Origin: Synechococcales cyanobacterium VAR_4_metabat_354
GTDB lineage: Bacteria > Cyanobacteriota > Cyanobacteriia > Cyanobacteriales > Chamaesiphonaceae
Length of the DNA stretch: 64,000 bases
Assembly: GCA_031414775.1 (NCBI GenBank)
Contig: JANOQI010000062.1
Span: forward strand, 244,691 to 308,690
Reading direction: 5' to 3'
Shown one piece after another: positions 22,401 through 40,400 of this stretch. Made by a program: the position numbers. Each line of letters opens with the position of its first letter. Position 1 is the first letter of the stretch.

Positions 22401-25400
22401 TTGGAATACATCATCTATTTGTGAACCCAAATAAATAGACATGATGGCCGGCGGTGCTTCGTTAGCACCCAAGCGGTGGTCGTTACCAGCTGTCGCAATT
22501 ACCGCCCGCAAGAGTGATCCATACTTGTGAATGCCCCGAATGACCGCCCCACAAAATACCAGAAACTGCAAGTTGGTATGCGGCTCATCGCCGGGATCGA
22601 GCAAGTTGCCCTGGGTGGAGTTGCCCACCGACCAGTTGACATGTTTACCGGAGCCGTTGATGCCAGCAAAGGGTTTTTCATGGAGCAAGCAAGCCATACC
22701 GTGTTTTTTGGCAGTTACCCGCAGAACGGTCATAATCATCTGCTGGTGGTCGGTAGCTACGTTGGCCGCTTCATAATACGGAGCGATTTCAAACTGGCCA
22801 GGTGCTACTTCGTTATGTCTGGTTTTGGCTGGAATGCCGAGTCGATAAAGTTGTTCTTCGACATCTTGCATATACACCTGCACCCGCTCTGGAATTACGC
22901 CAAAGTAGTGGTCATCAAACTGTTGACCCTTGGCTGGTGCTTTGCCAAATAGCGTTCTGCCGGCCAGCATTAAATCTGGGCGACTGGTGATAAAACTAGC
23001 ATCTACTAAGAAGTACTCTTGTTCGGCACCACAGCTGGAGTTGACTGTCGCTACTTCGGTGTTGCCTAGCAGTTTCAAGACCTTAATCGCTGCCTTGCTC
23101 ATGGTTGCATTGGAGCGCAACAAAGGTGTTTTCTTGTCGAGAGCTTCACCAGTCCAAGAGATAAAGACGGTGGGAATGCAAAGGGTGACACCATTATCAG
23201 TGCGCATCACATAAGCTGGACTGCTCACATCCCAAGCCGTGTAGCCCCGAGCTTCAAAGGTCGATCGAATGCCGCCATTCGGGAAAGATGACCCATCTGG
23301 TTCACCCTGTACCAACAGTTTGCCCGCAAATTCGGAAATAGCGGTGCCATCACTTTGTACCGAAATAAAACCATCATGCTTCTCGGCGGTGGCGTTAGTT
23401 AAAGGGTAGAAAACGTGAGCGTAATAAAGTGCGCCCTTGGACATTGCCCAGTCTTTCATCGCTGATGCCACCACATCAGCGATGGAGTGGTCGAGCTGCT
23501 CGCCATTCTGGATCGTCTTCTTCAGAGATTTAAAGACATCCTTGGGCAGACGCTCTTGCATTTTGGCGAGACCGAAGACGTCTGTTGCCCAAATATTTTC
23601 CAGCTTGGCTGGCTTTTTCGGAGGCATCGGTGCTCTCTGTGAGATCTGATAAATTGCCTGAAGGCGAGACTTATTTCCACTCATTGCTTTTTTTAAATAC
23701 GTGTTGATACATGAACTCTACATGATCGTATTGACAATTCAGACTAGCATTCCGTATCTTCCGATACGGAATGCTAGTAGCTGACTATTTCTTAATTCTT
23801 CCTTAAGTGTTTTAAAACTAGTCTGGGCTATCAACTCACCTAAAAAATTAACTTGTTAAAAATAGCTATTTCGTTCTAGTTGGAGTGAGATCATGCGGAA
23901 ATTACTGACTTTTTCTCACTGACAGATGAAATTTATCACATTATTGTTACTTCCATATTGCATCCTCATCCTTTTTGCTAGATGTACAATTCTAGCGGTT
24001 GTGTCGGGTGTGAGGGTAAATCATCATTTAAGTAAAAATAAAGTGTTGAAGAGATGAATACAAGTTCTGAGGGACTCTACCTGACGCTATTTCAGCGTCA
24101 ACTGCTACAGGAGAACATCCAAAAAGATTTGCCCAGATCCTATCGGCAACGACTGGAAATAATATTGCTGACTGATAACGGCAAAACTCAAGCAGAAATC
24201 TGCCGCATGATTGGGTGTTGCACATCGACAGCTAGTCGTTGGATTCAGCTAACCAAAGCGGGCTTGGCTCATAACTATTTAGATTGTCCGGTGGGTCGCC
24301 CCAAAATTGTGACTGATGAATACATCGAACTACTGCGAGAGTTGCTCCAGCACAGTCCTAGAGATTATGGTTACCCTTTTAGAACTTGGACAGTGAGTTG
24401 GCTAGGTAAACATATCACCAAAGTAATGGGCATTGAAGTCAGTGAGAGCCACCTGAAGCGGGTGATGCGCGATTTAGGATTGTCTACTCGATTACCGAAA
24501 TCACAGCCAGAGAAGTATAAACAACCGGGAGCCAACATCTTTATTGCTGATTTACCCCAGACTGCTGATGTGCCCAGACTCATTTCTGGCGATCCAGCAA
24601 GATCTACTGATGGCGATAATCACAGATCCATCTGCGATGAACGAGCAGAAAGCGAATTATCAGAATCCAACTTGCGTCAAATTAGAACAGAGCACCAGAT
24701 TTATGGCTCAGCATCATCTTTCACAACTTATTTCTTCCCAGCAGCTCGAAGAGGTTTTTCATATTACGCTCACCCCTGCCGAGTATAAAAATTGTCTGAA
24801 TAAAGCTCAGTTAATTAGTCCTGATGTGGGTCAATTGTGGACAGTGCCGGATATTCAAACCGGCTTGTATATTGTCCTGAGCGGCAAGATCCGGCTATTA
24901 GATCATGATGATGAAATGATCGCGGCGCTCACCGCCGGACAGTATTTTGGAGAGTATACTTTTTTTGCGGCAGAAAACTTAGCTGTGTATACAGCGAGAG
25001 CCGGAGTGAATGTGCAGCTCTGTTGGGTACCGCCGGAAGTTCTGACATCATTGATCGACAAATATCCAATTATTCGCCAACAGCTGTGGGAAACTGCCCA
25101 AAAACGTTGTGAGCCTGGTAGCTCAGTCCCAGCGCAGCGCGTTGTCAACTCATCAGTTTTACCTAATTTGCCAGTATTGGAGTTGCCACCCGATCGATCG
25201 AGTAAAAAAATTAGTAAAGCCTACTTCCCCAATCCCCAACAAAGGGTTGGACACCTGTGGCAAAGGGTTACTCGCCGTTATCCTTTTTATGCTCAGCAGA
25301 GCGCTTCCGATTGTGGGGCAGCCTGTTTGGTCATGGTTGCTCGTTATTGGGGCAAGAAATTCAGTGTGAATCGGCTGCGGGAAATTGCCCATGTCGATCG

Positions 25401-37400: not shown

Positions 37401-40400
37401 ATCTGGCACCGCACCAAAGATCTCTGGAGTTAAACGCTCCAATCCCCGAATCATTCTTTGGACAATGCTTGTTTCGGATCGGAGCGGGTTTCGATCGATC
37501 GCTTCCTGATAGTCCGATCGCTGATAGGTATCCCGATGGAAAGTAGCCAACAAAGCCCCCAGTTTTTGGGCGATGCGATCGGAAAAGGTATTTTCCTTGG
37601 CATAAAAGCTCATCAAGTCCTGATATTCATTCAGATATTTAAATATCAGAATCGAGTTCTCGGCATCAAAATGGAGTACTTCCGAAACAAAAGGTTGCCA
37701 GTGCTGCAATGATGAAAAATTTCGCATCAATTCCTGCACTTGCCATTCTGACAAAAACTCCCCGATGGCTTTTCCTTCTTGGTTGTGGCGTTCCTGCTTT
37801 ACTAGAAGCTTTGAGTCTTGAGCTAACGTAATTAACAAGTTAAAGTTCTTTGCCGACACTGGTTCGATATTATCAGTGGTGCTTTCTGAGTGGTAGCCCA
37901 GATCGGCCAAGTACTCAAAGACATTCGTTTGATTTAGTAGAAATACCATAGTTGATTTTGGAAACCTTTAAGATAGCTCGGTAACTCGTGAGTCACTTGT
38001 CTTACCCGTTGTCGGTAGTATCAAAGTTGCAAGTGAGTTGAATTTTCTCCACTCCGATTTACCTTGTCCCTAATTCTAGACAAATCAAGTTCTACATATA
38101 CAAAAAGAAGTGATCTTAAACGGTGGTAAATTACAACTATTTTGATCCTTTTGCAATCGCAAAAAAGTAACCTCCTTGTCTAAATAAAGAATAAGCCAAG
38201 ATTTTGTCAGCTGATTTATTAAGATCGAATAACCTATCTCAACATCAATCTGGAGAGCTTAGTGAAATGGACGCTAGCAATTGGATTGGCTAAGATGGCA
38301 ATGAAGGTCAATTGCTTATCCGGAGAAAAAACCTATGAAAATTGATATTGGCATTGATACAGCAGCTCGCAAAGAGATCGCGGATGGTTTATCGAAGCTC
38401 TTGGCCGATACCTACAGTTTGTACTTGAAAACTCACTATTTTCACTGGAACGTTACCGGGCCAATGTTTCAAACCCTACACCTCATGTTTGAAACCCAGT
38501 ATACCGAGTTGGCTTTGGCCGTAGATTTAATTGCTGAGCGCATTCGGGCGTTGGGCTTTACGGCTCCGGGTAGCTACAGTGTTTATGCTCAGCTCAGTTC
38601 GATTCCGGAAACCACTGATGTCCCCACAGCCACTGACATGATCCGGTTGTTGGTAGAAGGACAAGAAACTGTTTGCCGCACTGCTCGATCGATCTTCCCC
38701 ATTATCGAAAAAGTTAGTGACGAACCTACCGCCGATCTTTTAACCCAAAGATTACAACTTCACGAAAAAACTGCATGGATGCTACGCAGTTTGTTAGATA
38801 ATTAAGGTTCCTTTAGTAATCGATGGGAGTGCCTTGGCTGACAAGACACTCTTTTTTTGTGTTTTTATGGGTGAAAATTCTTTGGAAATCGTGTTGTGCG
38901 AGCTAATGGTGACAGCGCAGATCCCTAACTGGCAGCAGCTTAGTCACCAGACGGGGATTTCTGCTAAGCGGTTGCGAAAATTGCGGCACGGTCAGAGTGA
39001 GCATTTGAAACTATCTGAACTAATTAATCTCAGTCAATCGCTGCAAATTTCGCTGTTAGGGTTACTAGAGCGATGTGGTCTGCAATCTAGCCCGGAGCCA
39101 ACTAGTCCGCCAGCTTCTTCCCTGACAGAATTTCAACTGACTAGTATTCAAACCATTGAATCTTTTTTAACCTATTGGCCAGCGGCCGCCTATCAAGTCC
39201 AGATCAATCCAGATTTTCCGGCCAGCAAACTGTTACCGCTGGTGAAGCCGATCGAACGTCTCCTGGCTAACTGGGATGTTGTCCAAATTGGTGCAGTGGG
39301 CGCAGTAATGCCTTTTAATCCGCAGCAGCATCAGGCCATTGATGGCCATATTCAGTCAGGTGAAATGGTGATGGTGCGTTATCCCGGCTATCAGCAGGGT
39401 GAAAAACTATTGTGGCGTGCCCAAGTCAGTCGCTCCTAAAGAATTTGTTGAGATTTCTAGCCTAGGTGCATAACCGGGGCAATTGATCGGCAATAATAGG
39501 GAGCGTACTGCCTTGCGCTTTGGTGCAGGCTCTCCACCCGCCATTGGTTATGTCAGACACAAATATTGAATCAGTTCTTCAAGAAAATCGGCTATTTCCC
39601 CCGTCTCCGGAGTTTTCCCAAGGGGCACATATTAAGAGCATGGCTGAATATGAAGCGCTCTGTGCCAAAGCAGCGGCAGATCCGGCCAAATTCTGGGCAG
39701 ACTTAGCGATGCAAGAGTTACATTGGTTTAAGCCTTGGGATCAAGTCTTAGACTGGAGTAATCCCCCTTTTGCGAAATGGTTTGTTGGTGGTCAGCTGAA
39801 TATTTCCTATAACTGTCTCGATCGACACTTGGAAACCGAGCGGCGAAATAAACCGGCCTTGATCTGGGAAGGTGAACCGGGCGATACCCGCACCTTAACT
39901 TATTTTCAGCTACATCAAGAAGTGTGCCAGATGGCCAATGTCCTGAAAAAGTTGGGCGTAACCAAAGGCGATCGAGTGGGCATCTACATGCCAATGATTC
40001 CAGAAGCGGCGATGGCCATGTTGGCCTGTGCTCGCATTGGGGCGGTGCATACGATTGTCTTTGGGGGTTTTAGTGCCGAGGCTTTACGCGATCGATTGGT
40101 AGCTGGTGAAGTCAAGTTAGTAATTACTGCTGATGGCGGTTGGCGCAAGGATGCCATCGTCCCCCTCAAGCAGCAGGTAGATTTGGCGATCGAAGGCAAT
40201 GCTTGTCCAACGGTGCAAAAAACTCTAGTGGTGCAGCGCACTAAGCAAGACACTGCGATGGAAGCAGGGCGAGATCATTGGTGGCACGAAGAACAGGCGA
40301 TCGCCTCTACGGATTGTCCGGCAGTAGCGATGGATGCCGAAGACATGCTGTTTATTCTGTACACCTCGGGCAGCACCGGCAAACCAAAGGGCGTAGTGCA

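Follow-up and report, generated by a model that had tools for sequence, protein, structure and literature searches.

A lanthipeptide locus in which a LanM with a degraded dehydratase site lies beside a separate kinase and a separate lyase raises the question of which of these proteins dehydrates the precursor peptides. We analysed this locus in a window of 64,000 nucleotides from the metagenome-assembled genome of a cyanobacterium (Synechococcales cyanobacterium VAR_4_metabat_354); coordinates count along the window. The survey had proposed that the locus encodes a hybrid class II/class V pathway, with dehydration by the split kinase and lyase and cyclisation as the only role of the LanM. Its gene inventory was confirmed by Pfam: the biosynthetic operon, on the minus strand, encodes an APH-type, LanK-like kinase (36801-37949; PF01636, 3e-11), a HopA1-type, LanY-like phospho-Ser/Thr lyase (35593-36696; PF17914, 2e-57), a LanM of 972 aa (32655-35573; DUF4135, 1e-101; LANC_like, 2e-56) and five precursors (30208-32498).

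An exporter gene set on the plus strand adjoins this operon, as the survey had stated, but the two operons are convergent, meeting tail to tail near 30.0 kb, and not divergent. The set comprises a cNMP-binding/C39 peptidase/ABC exporter (24703-27420; Pfam cNMP_binding, Peptidase_C39, ABC_membrane, ABC_tran), a HlyD-type membrane fusion protein (27434-29125; HlyD_3, Biotin_lipoyl_2) and a PPIC-type peptidyl-prolyl isomerase (rotamase) with a SurA-like N-terminal part (29177-29914; Pfam). The ABC reading frame is open from 24544, and alignment with the homologues at loci L043, L057 and L058 indicates that the start is probably the ATG at 24703, instead of 24568 as previously annotated. A rotamase gene is also found at L043 and in the LanM-less HopA1/APH clusters L057 and L058, the latter being a second such cluster in the window's own genome. 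Upstream of the exporter, as its partner, lies an HTH gene (HTH_23/HTH_32 by Pfam; 24054-24788, plus strand), which at its 3' end runs into the ABC reading frame and whose homologues occupy the equivalent position in L043 and L057; this conserved gene is a member of the cluster. Two terminator-like hairpins on the minus strand, 3' of precursor 4 (30610-30637) and of precursor 1 (32212-32235), have AGATGAGCT arms in common.

The LanM shares the DUF4135 plus LANC_like architecture of class II enzymes (ProcM-type cyanobacterial enzymes, LicM2, 6ST5, and CylM, 5DZT), and its sequence matches LicM2 at 4e-65 and CylM at 9e-26. Its DUF4135 match is full length, and an AF2 model compares with LicM2 at TM 0.64/0.67, with low confidence over region 311-367. 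In contrast to the class II enzymes, 7 of its 10 conserved dehydratase residues are replaced, and about 90-100 N-terminal residues, belonging to the capping helices, are missing. D252, K274 and D347 (CylM numbering) are kept, and the substitutions are H349 to E, N352 to H, D364 to N, E366 to A, H254 to S, R506 to G and T512 to R. The reported loss of the kinase motifs is borne out by alignment, with DCEHDH and INAA standing where LicM2 has DFHNEN and IDLE and CylM has DLHYEN and IDNE. The decay extends beyond these motifs, to the P-loop His, the elimination residues (equivalents of CylM R506 and T512) and the capping helices, so that the metal ligands N352 and D364 and the elimination Thr T512 are all replaced. 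No other DUF4135 gene was found in the whole genome.

The survey's comparative counts were reproduced with more proteins: 47 of 401 genomes hold a DUF4135 gene, and the motif His is lost in 7 of 55 full-length LanMs, among them the window protein and its nearest three relatives (DCGSEN, DCGSAD, NCQNID). The window LanM sits in one clade of 34 protein clusters and 12 loci. When the tree was restricted to cyclase-domain columns, all 11 full-length members of the clade grouped together (SH-aLRT 100), and the window LanM nests among CCG-type cyanobacterial LanMs. In the protein-database set, where related genomes make the samples non-independent, E366 is kept in 0 of 34 clade clusters against 80 of 80 other LanMs, H349 in 9 against 78, T/S512 in 14 against 80, and D252 in 13 against 80. 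The full set of ten dehydratase sites is kept by 78 of 80, 46 of 51 and 58 of 59 LanMs outside the clade, and by no clade member. The sole clade-wide change is that of E366 to D, A or N, while the remaining dehydratase residues vary by member. The LanM of L061, about 81% identical to that of the window, reads DCEYDQ/IDAA at the positions of DCEHDH/INAA, and such differing replacements among close relatives suggest drift and not a new conserved catalytic set. Some members are near-canonical (P0021 and P0022 keep 9 of 10 sites, P0016 and P0019 keep 8), and therefore the clade as a whole cannot be called proven dead.

HopA1 adjoins the LanM at 8 of the 12 clade loci (the window, L061, L043, L039, L069, L064, L103 and L066), APH being counted wherever the contig reaches far enough, whereas outside the clade HopA1/APH are adjacent to none of the 51 LanM loci of the genome sample and none of the 74 metagenome loci; these counts also include related genomes. 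The contigs of L060, L062 and L063 end too near the LanM for scoring, which leaves G228 as the one clade locus truly unlinked. The linkage that the survey saw as special to the LanM's relatives thus holds in the larger sample, with HopA1 and APH beside the LanM in G180 and G144. G228 has a single HopA1/APH cluster, 0.72 Mb away from its dead LanM and from a precursor with the window-type leader. The further observation that the genomes of the window LanM and its three nearest relatives all hold a HopA1 gene is uninformative, because all 45 sampled genomes of family f6 have one (61 of 401 overall). Taken together, the residue states, the tree and the linkage point to dehydratase-site decay as a property of the whole monophyletic clade, tied to HopA1/APH and its leader.

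The cyclase domain is intact. WCHG and CCG are both present in the window LanM, as had been reported, and 4 of 4 cyclase residues are kept, giving a three-Cys zinc site that we take to be of ProcM type. Across the clade, each of the four cyclase residues (His, Cys, Cys, Cys) is found in 34 of 34 clusters, versus 64, 75, 75 and 73 of 80 other LanMs. Comparison of the window protein with that of L061 gives dN/dS values of 0.168 (residues 1-575) and 0.164 (cyclase); the dead dehydratase domain is under purifying selection, with no wholesale decay.

The five precursors, all on the minus strand, have in common a leader ending in GG, as noted in the survey, with an almost invariant Ser-containing motif. 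Their cores are diverse: precursor 1 (32271-32498) has 5 Cys and many Thr, precursors 2 (31831-32034) and 4 (30804-31031) each have 2 Cys plus Ser/Thr, precursor 3 (31329-31493) has a hydrophobic core with one Thr and no Cys, and precursor 5 (30208-30423), with its HopA1/APH-type leader, has a core without Ser, Thr or Cys. Precursors 2 and 3 start at internal Met codons of longer ORFs (31831-32097 and 31329-31652), so that there are two such starts and not one as first described. Two of the five window precursors, 3 and 5, lack core Cys and hence cannot be LanM substrates; the orthologue of precursor 5 in L061 has 2 Cys in its core. A leader HMM built from the window leaders matches only beside clade LanMs and LanM-less HopA1/APH pairs, with no matches in LanM loci outside the clade. 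Among cores beside LanMs, 24 of 26 contain at least one Cys and 22 of 26 at least two, and Cys makes up 8.8% and Ser+Thr 14% of core residues (a composition filter left out the precursors of L039 and L043, both Cys-rich). In LanM-less HopA1/APH clusters, represented by 40 loci of our own choice out of about 108 matches, at least one Cys is found in 9 of 48 cores and at least two in 5 of 48, and Cys makes up 0.8%.

The kinase and the lyase resemble the class V LanK/LanY pairs (CaoK/CaoY of cacaoidin; LxmK/LxmY of lexapeptide, PDB 9DK1), in which an APH-fold kinase likewise stands beside a HopA1-fold lyase. The window lyase carries R206, K237, R247 and Y254, which align with LxmY and have the spacing of CaoY R187, K219, R229 and Y236; the roles of these residues come from CaoY mutagenesis, and all four are present in 7 of 7 LanM-linked HopA1 proteins. 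The window kinase contains HNDLKLNN, IDWE and VKQE, conserved in 8 of 8 homologues. The similarity to the class V proteins is nevertheless weak (lyase against 9dk1_B, E 6e-7; kinase, which matches LxmK, against 9dk1_A, E 9e-4), the host is a cyanobacterium, and the window cluster differs in its double-glycine leader, C39 ABC export and Zn-dependent LanC domain within the LanM; class Va clusters have no LanC-like gene, according to PMC12291118. Pfam analysis of the ORFs revealed neither LanD nor LanX in the window cluster.

A closer parallel is found in the cyanobacterial 'Family 1A' HopA1/phosphotransferase RiPP-like clusters described by Eyles et al. (2021, Chem Sci, PMC8153245), which share with the window the GG-ending leader family, several non-identical precursors and the HTH/C39-ABC/HlyD/rotamase module. 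The 'type-B' putative LanA of Liang et al. (2022, PMC9486802), grouped with 'Family 1A', have leaders of the same family. The window differs from 'Family 1A' in its Cys-rich cores and in the LanM between HopA1 and the precursors, and from class II loci in its added kinase and lyase and a HopA1/APH-type leader seen at no other LanM locus. We conclude that the window cluster belongs to the cyanobacterial 'Family 1A' HopA1/APH clusters and has acquired a LanM; it is not a relative of actinobacterial class V. The division of labour proposed in the survey is supported by the sequence comparisons, while the label 'class V' needs care. Joint working of a HopA1/APH pair and a LanC-like cyclase was already proposed in 2021, and Eyles et al. 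give LanC-like neighbours for 20% of HopA1 proteins, naming Families 11/20 and 22; in one section of their text and two supplementary files (of dataset 1, part 1 of 5), there is no LanM as an encoded HopA1 neighbour and no mention of DUF4135 or PF13575. Like the survey, we found no description in print of a dehydratase-dead LanM with a HopA1/APH pair.

The best-supported explanation, and in our judgement a likely one, is that dehydration falls to the split kinase and lyase, leaving the LanM with cyclisation alone. Class IV LanL proteins combine lyase, kinase and Zn cyclase in one polypeptide; the window follows the same logic, with a kinase and a phospho-lyase site kept apart and a LanC cyclase that depends on Zn, but spreads it over three proteins that differ in ancestry: the kinase is of APH type, the lyase is of HopA1 type, and the cyclase derives from a LanM and still carries a dead lipid-kinase-like domain. 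The enzymatic steps we infer are as follows. The APH kinase would phosphorylate core Ser/Thr of precursors bearing the conserved double-glycine leader, after which the HopA1 lyase would remove the phosphate by elimination and leave dehydro-amino acids, the chemistry of the LxmK/LxmY and CaoK/CaoY pairs. The LanM, having presumably lost the capacity for phosphorylation and elimination, would join core Cys thiols to the dehydro residues at its intact three-Cys zinc site, closing thioether rings, with its kinase-like domain most likely retained as a non-catalytic module for leader/substrate binding or docking. The neighbouring cNMP-C39 ABC/HlyD exporter would then cleave the peptide after GG and secrete it.

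The kinase-like domain may instead have a new function, as a LanL-like docking platform for APH-HopA1 and the cyclase, as a dedicated reader of the HopA1/APH-type leader, or as a new catalytic site, which we consider unlikely; it is a refinement of the main explanation and does not contradict it. Thirty positions are at least 90% conserved in the clade and at most 20% in other LanMs, 19 of them in the dehydratase-like part and 8 clustered at residues 302-344, directly after the former Mg motif; the dN/dS of 0.17 and the switch of leader type in the clade point the same way. Clade-specific conservation would however be expected of any clade, and the model is of low confidence over 311-367. It appears improbable that the LanM still works as a bifunctional class II synthetase and dehydrates through its substituted residues, with APH/HopA1 serving other cluster peptides or extra dehydrations. 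In the CylM paper (Dong 2015), which makes no mention of Glu366, dehydration is lost in the D347A, N352A and D364A mutants and elimination in T512A, and in the window N352, D364, R506 and T512 are all replaced, with replacements that differ even at about 81% identity and capping helices that are partly missing. Against this, D347 and K274 are kept, CylM H349A and K274A retain trace activity in the same source, the domain is under purifying selection, and precursors 3 and 5, not being LanM substrates, are peptides open to APH/HopA1 alone.

We give only a slight chance to a reading in which APH/HopA1 do not dehydrate the cores but act on conserved leader Ser, in regulation or in export, with the LanM-linked peptides dehydrated by an unlinked enzyme or never. 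Many 'Family 1A' cores are without conserved Ser, Thr or Cys according to Eyles et al. (2021, PMC8153245), and precursor 5 combines a core lacking Ser/Thr with the almost invariant leader Ser motif. The homologous CaoK/CaoY and LxmK/LxmY, however, dehydrate core Ser/Thr, the lyase R/K/R/Y and kinase motifs are kept, the LanM-linked cores contain 14% Ser+Thr and 8.8% Cys, the genome has a single DUF4135 gene, and no LanB-like gene is found among the cluster ORFs. That the LanM is an inert relic, with rings spontaneous or absent, would fit its decayed dehydratase site and shortened N-terminus, but is extremely improbable given its open frame, full-length Pfam matches, dN/dS of 0.16-0.17 in both domains, the invariant cyclase residues of the clade, and the association of Cys-rich cores with LanM presence.

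Under the preferred reading, of dehydration by the split pair and cyclisation by the LanM, a ProcM-type LanM would have been acquired once by a cyanobacterial HopA1/APH ('Family 1A') cluster, and its own dehydratase chemistry would have turned redundant and then decayed. The operon, with its dehydratase-dead class II synthetase and separate kinase and lyase, illustrates the recombination of biosynthetic classes in nature.

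The minus strand of the window carries, in this order, an APH-family kinase gene (36801-37949, 382 aa, PF01636 at 3e-11), a HopA1-family gene (35593-36696, 367 aa, PF17914 at 2e-57), a LanM gene (32655-35573, 972 aa) and, downstream of it, five small precursor ORFs (30208-32498). In the LanM, a DUF4135 kinase-like N-terminus (PF13575, 1e-101, profile positions 1-376 of 378) is followed by a LanC-like domain at the C-terminus (LANC_like, PF05147, 2e-56). These ORFs and Pfam matches bear out the operon described in the survey's finding, and no flavoprotein and no second kinase-like gene occurs among the ORFs of the cluster. 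On the plus strand, Pfam matches identify a cNMP-binding/C39/ABC exporter, a HlyD protein (27434-29125) and a PPIC rotamase (29177-29914). The exporter frame is open from 24544; its N-terminus can be aligned with three homologues only from the ATG at 24703, which is its likely start. Upstream lies an HTH gene (24054-24788, plus strand) with homologues in L043, a LanM locus of genome G180, and in L057, a HopA1 locus of genome G228; it runs about 60 codons beyond the ends of its homologues and overlaps the ABC frame (24544-24790). The exporter set had been called divergent, but it is convergent with the biosynthetic genes, the two sets meeting tail to tail near 30.0 kb, and the same layout is found in L043.

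The five precursors have in common a 35-residue leader that ends in GG. An internal Met start had been noted for one of them; internal starts do occur, but in two precursors, at 32034 and 31493. The core of precursor 5 (30208-30423) contains no Ser, Thr or Cys and that of precursor 3 (31329-31493) a single Thr and no Cys, so that neither can become a lanthipeptide; they may be exported without modification or be decayed copies. The orthologue of precursor 5 in the related locus L061 has two Cys in its core. The GC content of the precursor region (30000-33000) is 31-37%, whereas the segments around it have 43-53%. Directly downstream of precursors 1 and 4 lie two terminator-like hairpins (32212-32235 and 30610-30637, minus strand) that resemble each other and have AGATGAGCT arms; hairpins so placed could determine how much precursor transcript is made relative to enzyme transcript. 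A promoter scan gave 20 matches, no excess over the mean of 23 in shuffled sequence. The sequencing runs that match the window DNA are freshwater-sediment metagenome runs, a few of them perhaps its source, with no RNA run among those listed as holding the sequence.

To assess the catalytic sites of the LanM, we aligned it by phmmer against solved structures (LicM2, 6ST5, 4e-65; CylM, 5DZT, 9e-26) and scored ten dehydratase sites in CylM numbering. Only three are intact, D252 (D170), K274 (K192) and D347 (D267), while the other seven are replaced: H254 by S172, H349 by E269, N352 by H272, D364 by N284, E366 by A286, R506 by G419 and T512 by R425. The phosphorylation set (K274, D347, H349, N352, D364), each residue of which is conserved in 78 to 80 of 80 other LanMs, is thereby broken at H349 (E), N352 (H) and D364 (N), and D252 alone is kept of the elimination set (D252, H254, R506, T512). 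In CylM, the D347A, N352A and D364A variants gave no dehydration and H349A and K274A only traces, whereas D252, H254, R506 and T512 are the elimination residues and the T512A variant never eliminated (Dong 2015, PMC4550811). The loss of dehydratase residues reported for this protein (DCEHDH and INAA motifs) is therefore confirmed, as is the intact CHG...CCG zinc cyclase site, since the zinc ligands and the acid/base His are present as H778 (SHG), C840 (WCHG) and C887-C888 (CCG).

The window LanM also lacks about 90-100 N-terminal residues of other LanMs, as its residue 15 pairs with CylM residue 103 and a 151-column alignment gap precedes residue 1; the corresponding CylM region falls within the 'capping helices', L5-N131 in the CylM paper. 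An AF2 model has a mean pLDDT of 74.7, with low values at 268-280, the former catalytic loop, and at 311-367, and its top Foldseek matches are LicM2 (about 1000 columns, TM 0.64/0.67) and CylM. A complex prediction for LanM residues 1-600 with precursor 1, each supplied with an alignment, scored 0.00, which counts neither for nor against binding.

The kinase and the lyase, on the other hand, keep their catalytic residues. The window HopA1 and APH match the lyase and kinase chains of 9DK1, the LxmK/LxmY lexapeptide dehydratase (review PMC12141560), at 6e-7 and 9e-4, respectively. HopA1 residues R206, K237, R247 and Y254 align with the R, K, R and Y of the lyase chain (9dk1_B) and have the same spacing as R187, K219, R229 and Y236 of CaoY, in which the K219A and R187A substitutions abolished elimination (Liang 2022). 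These four residues are present in 7/7 LanM-linked HopA1 proteins, and the APH motifs HNDLKLNN, IDWE and VKQE, found in the kinase beside the window HopA1, are kept in 8/8 homologues. The cluster differs from a class Va cluster, described as having a LanD decarboxylase and LanX and no LanC or LanC-like cyclase (PMC12291118), in that a LanC-like domain is contained within its LanM. A HopA1 paralogue in which the catalytic Lys is replaced by Gln or Glu was seen at 13 loci (L154, L156, L158, L162, L165-L168, L172, L173, L177, L178 and L180), always with an adjacent APH and with genuine leader matches in 0/13, the one match (L166, E 0.004) lying inside a long ORF. Part 1 of dataset 1 of Eyles 2021 contains rows in which HopA1/APH occurs together with genes for thioesterase, AMP-binding, enolase-C-like, chorismate-binding and prenyltransferase proteins, and these rows may represent that paralogue.

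We then compared the LanMs of 401 genomes of the phylum, fetching flanks of up to ±9 kb around the matches, which yielded 55 LanM ORFs, none shorter than 800 aa and the window LanM among them. Its nearest relatives are those of L043 (G180), L039 (G144) and L042 (G228), at 959, 895 and 875 bits, the next best scoring 719. The catalytic motif reads DCEHDH, DCGSEN, DCGSAD and NCQNID in the window and these three relatives, exactly as the survey's finding had it, the Mg motif INAA, IDAE, IDAD and IDAD, and the elimination Thr is replaced by R, S, E and A, so that each protein is damaged in its own way. Homologues of the window HopA1 and APH occur in LanM flanks only at the window, L043 and L039, which upholds the linkage claimed for G180 and G144. 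The second LanM of G180 (L004) is canonical, with 10/10 sites and no HopA1 nearby.

Two lines of argument did not hold. DUF4135 is found in 47/401 genomes and HopA1 in 61/401, including 45/45 genomes of family f6, often in 2-3 copies, and therefore the mere presence of HopA1 in a genome is uninformative; the earlier argument that 4 of 4 genomes hold one, with the G228 copy elsewhere in the genome, carries no information in this form, although we do attach weight to the fact that G228 has a single HopA1 match. Loss of the DxH His is likewise no marker of the group, as three unrelated LanMs (L027, L036 and L040) lack this His alone, with the remaining nine sites intact and no HopA1 in the vicinity. 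Judged from the alignments, the marker of the clade is the lost Glu (E366) together with decay at several sites.

Wider sampling delimits the clade sharply. A species-genome scan gave two close relatives, 81-82% identical, and at L061 the order is APH-HopA1-LanM followed by six precursors. In a search of 5.8 billion proteins, 34 clusters (P0001-P0034) scored at least 863 bits and all others at most 698. We counted site conservation in these 34 clusters and, for comparison, in 80 LanMs of 800 aa or more from outside the clade. E366 is kept in 0/34 clade clusters, H349 in 9/34, D252 in 13/34, T/S512 in 14/34, D347 and D364 in 25/34 each, K274 in 27/34, N352 in 28/34, and H254 and R506 in 29/34 each, compared with 80/80 of the others at every site except H349 (78/80). 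The four cyclase residues are present in 34/34 of the clade each, versus 64, 75, 75 and 73 of the 80 others. Individual clade members retain between 2 and 9 of the ten sites, P0021 and P0022 having 9.

The reverse pattern, a mirror image of the clade decay, was also seen: some canonical LanMs with all ten dehydratase sites have lost cyclase residues (the His in 16/80, zinc Cys in 5-7/80), for example L044, L041, L031, L033 and L035, and several such proteins lie in multi-LanM loci (L032, L035).

A metagenome scan gave 80 loci, six of them with a full-length clade LanM in which 5-7/10 sites are intact, while the full set of ten is present in 58/59 non-clade LanM ORFs no shorter than 800 aa and incomplete only in a distant second ORF of L122. 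HopA1 adjoins the clade LanM in 4/6 of these loci (L069, L064, L103 and L066); in L066 it is split into two ORF pieces, and the contigs of L064 and L066 break off within the APH. In the remaining two, L062 and L063, the contigs extend only 0.7 and 1.25 kb beyond the LanM on its upstream side, a stretch that holds a precursor, and HopA1 is absent from the 3 and 10 kb that follow the LanM. No HopA1 homologue, APH homologue or leader match was found in the other 74 loci, a group that includes 10 in which the LanM is cut by the contig end and clade membership is not settled. L069 additionally encodes a 600-aa RTX-repeat (HemolysinCabind) protein between HopA1 and LanM (7514-9316, plus strand) and an IS605 OrfB/TnpB-like gene upstream of APH. 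At L080 (4296-5501, plus strand) a 401-aa CCG-type cyclase ORF stands alone and lacks a dehydratase domain. The peptide before it has another kind of leader, and repeated 'L-E-A-I-A-G-G'-type peptides in the neighbourhood resemble another RiPP family; given the other leader type and its unclear clade membership, we do not consider it an end point of the decay.

The relationships of these proteins were analysed with a tree built by a quick method, without bootstrap, from cyclase-domain columns only, so that the columns of the trait itself were left out. The 11 full-length clade members form one group (SH-aLRT 100), nested among CCG-type cyanobacterial LanMs. The unlinked L042 and L062 stand beside linked members, and their separation from HopA1/APH therefore looks secondary. 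The ratio of dehydratase to cyclase p-distances is only 1.07 in the clade versus 1.00 in canonical LanMs, and dN/dS between the window and L061 is 0.168 for LanM residues 1-575 and 0.164 for residues 600-972 (HopA1, 0.124; APH, 0.083), and we therefore reject relaxation of the entire dehydratase domain. On these rates, it is the catalytic sites only that are released from constraint in the dehydratase-like domain. At thirty positions the clade conserves a residue that other LanMs seldom have, 19 of them in the dehydratase-like part and 8 clustered at 302-344.

The precursors follow the same association. An HMM built from the five window leaders matches peptides beside the clade LanMs with enough flank (L039, L042, L043, L060, L061, L062, L063, L064, L069 and L103), with no match in L066, where 1.7 kb is available downstream. 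It also matches peptides beside HopA1/APH pairs that have no LanM, and none in other LanM loci. In 40 further HopA1 loci, our own pick out of about 108 matches, an APH is adjacent in 40/40, a LanM in 0/40, and leader-type peptides occur in 25; the 13 loci with the Lys-replaced HopA1 paralogue belong to this set of 40. After filtering (leader match E at most 1e-4, HMM end at least 33, ORF at most 130 aa, within-locus duplicates removed), 26 cores from 9 loci beside clade LanMs include 24 with at least one Cys and 22 with at least two (Cys share 8.8%), against 9 and 5, respectively, of 48 cores from 24 LanM-less loci (0.8%). These counts are descriptive and do not amount to a statistical test, because relatives are not independent. 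L039 and L043 each have one precursor, Cys-rich in both cases, that did not pass the filter, and the only Cys-less LanM-linked cores are window precursors 3 and 5.

The origin of the cluster is suggested by two LanM-less loci, L057, the only HopA1 locus of G228, and L058, a second HopA1 locus in the genome of the window (C16:190087-209578). Both combine an HTH/C39-ABC/HlyD/rotamase module with a precursor and a HopA1-APH pair, and since they carry this module without a LanM, the window cluster can be described as the same module with a LanM inserted. Its GG leader, variable cores, several precursors and HopA1/phosphotransferase pair, in a cyanobacterium, agree with the description of Family 1A in the text of Eyles et al. 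2021 (570 peptides in 183 clusters, Cyanobacteria only, with a GG leader and variable cores). The putative LanAs that Liang et al. 2022 call 'type-B' fit the module too. L058 itself contains APH (8373-9500), HopA1 (9500-10564) and precursor (10951-11214) genes, and its exporter genes encode a C39-ABC protein, a response-regulator-HlyD fusion and a rotamase. In this HopA1 the four putative catalytic residues R, K, R and Y have become N, Q, Q and Q, while the APH retains its motifs. The core of the precursor is rich in Gly, Lys and Ser and has three C-terminal Cys; a similar locus exists in G290 (L181). Radical SAM genes occur beside the APH in L057 (11589-12860, minus strand) and, with two Nif11-leader peptides, 2.2 kb upstream of the APH in L061 (3324-5420, minus strand), where they may form a neighbouring, separate RiPP cluster.

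Taken together, independent comparative lines support, at the level of sequence, the hybrid class II/class V reading proposed earlier, in which the APH kinase and the HopA1 lyase would dehydrate and the LanM would only cyclise. APH would phosphorylate Ser/Thr residues of the core, HopA1 would eliminate the phosphate, the LanM cyclase domain would add Cys thiols to the dehydro residues, and the C39 ABC exporter would cut after GG and secrete the peptide, the LanM kinase-like domain being a putative pseudo-enzyme kept for binding or docking. G228 argues for action of the parts in trans, as its decayed LanM and the accompanying precursor are separated by 0.72 Mb from the genome's one HopA1/APH/exporter cluster, and that cluster encodes another precursor with this leader. 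A bolder proposal, which we regard as doubtful, is that the clade represents a natural 'pseudo-dehydratase' LanM, the first RiPP synthetase whose kinase-like domain is purely non-catalytic (leader recognition or docking), joining APH and HopA1, whose ancestry is unrelated, to a LanC cyclase as a LanL-like three-protein machine, with a class-to-class transition in progress and the 302-344 surface marking a new interaction.

A split kinase and lyase acting with a LanC-type cyclase is already in print as a hypothesis: HopA1/phosphotransferase pairs have been proposed as dehydratases for LanC-like cyclases, and 20% of HopA1 proteins have LanC-like neighbours or fusions, with Families 11/20 and 22 named (Eyles 2021, PMC8153245). 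Two supplementary files of that study have a LANC_like column and make no mention of LanM, DUF4135 or PF13575, and part 1 of 5 of its dataset 1 contains no row with both PPIase and LANC_like flags. A 2025 review gives class V lanthipeptides as so far known only from actinobacteria. Full-text literature searches turned up no account of a LanM paired with HopA1/APH, in agreement with the survey's finding, or of a dehydratase-dead LanM; subscription-only papers and figures were outside the scope of this search. Three points are new here, as far as sequence comparison can tell: the putative cyclase is an entire LanM in which decay has selectively struck the dehydratase site, this decay is graded across a clade, and the apparently dead domain is maintained under selection.

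What sets the lanthipeptide classes apart is the enzyme used for dehydration and the one used for cyclisation, and this clade combines class II and class V parts in nature. Its LanM genes carry the label 'type 2 lanthipeptide synthetase LanM', which would wrongly predict a self-sufficient class II pathway. The grades of decay among living relatives, from 9/10 down to 2/10 sites, would form a series in which dehydration has passed to other enzymes, and offer a test of a possible non-catalytic role of the LanM kinase-like domain in leader or substrate binding. Peptide engineering could also profit from a ProcM-type cyclase that is guided by the leader, tolerates varied substrates and is already uncoupled from dehydration. 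Finally, since a thioether product in the LanM-linked clusters would report dehydration, the clade would open a first route to the function of the cyanobacterial HopA1/APH clusters of the large Family 1A group.
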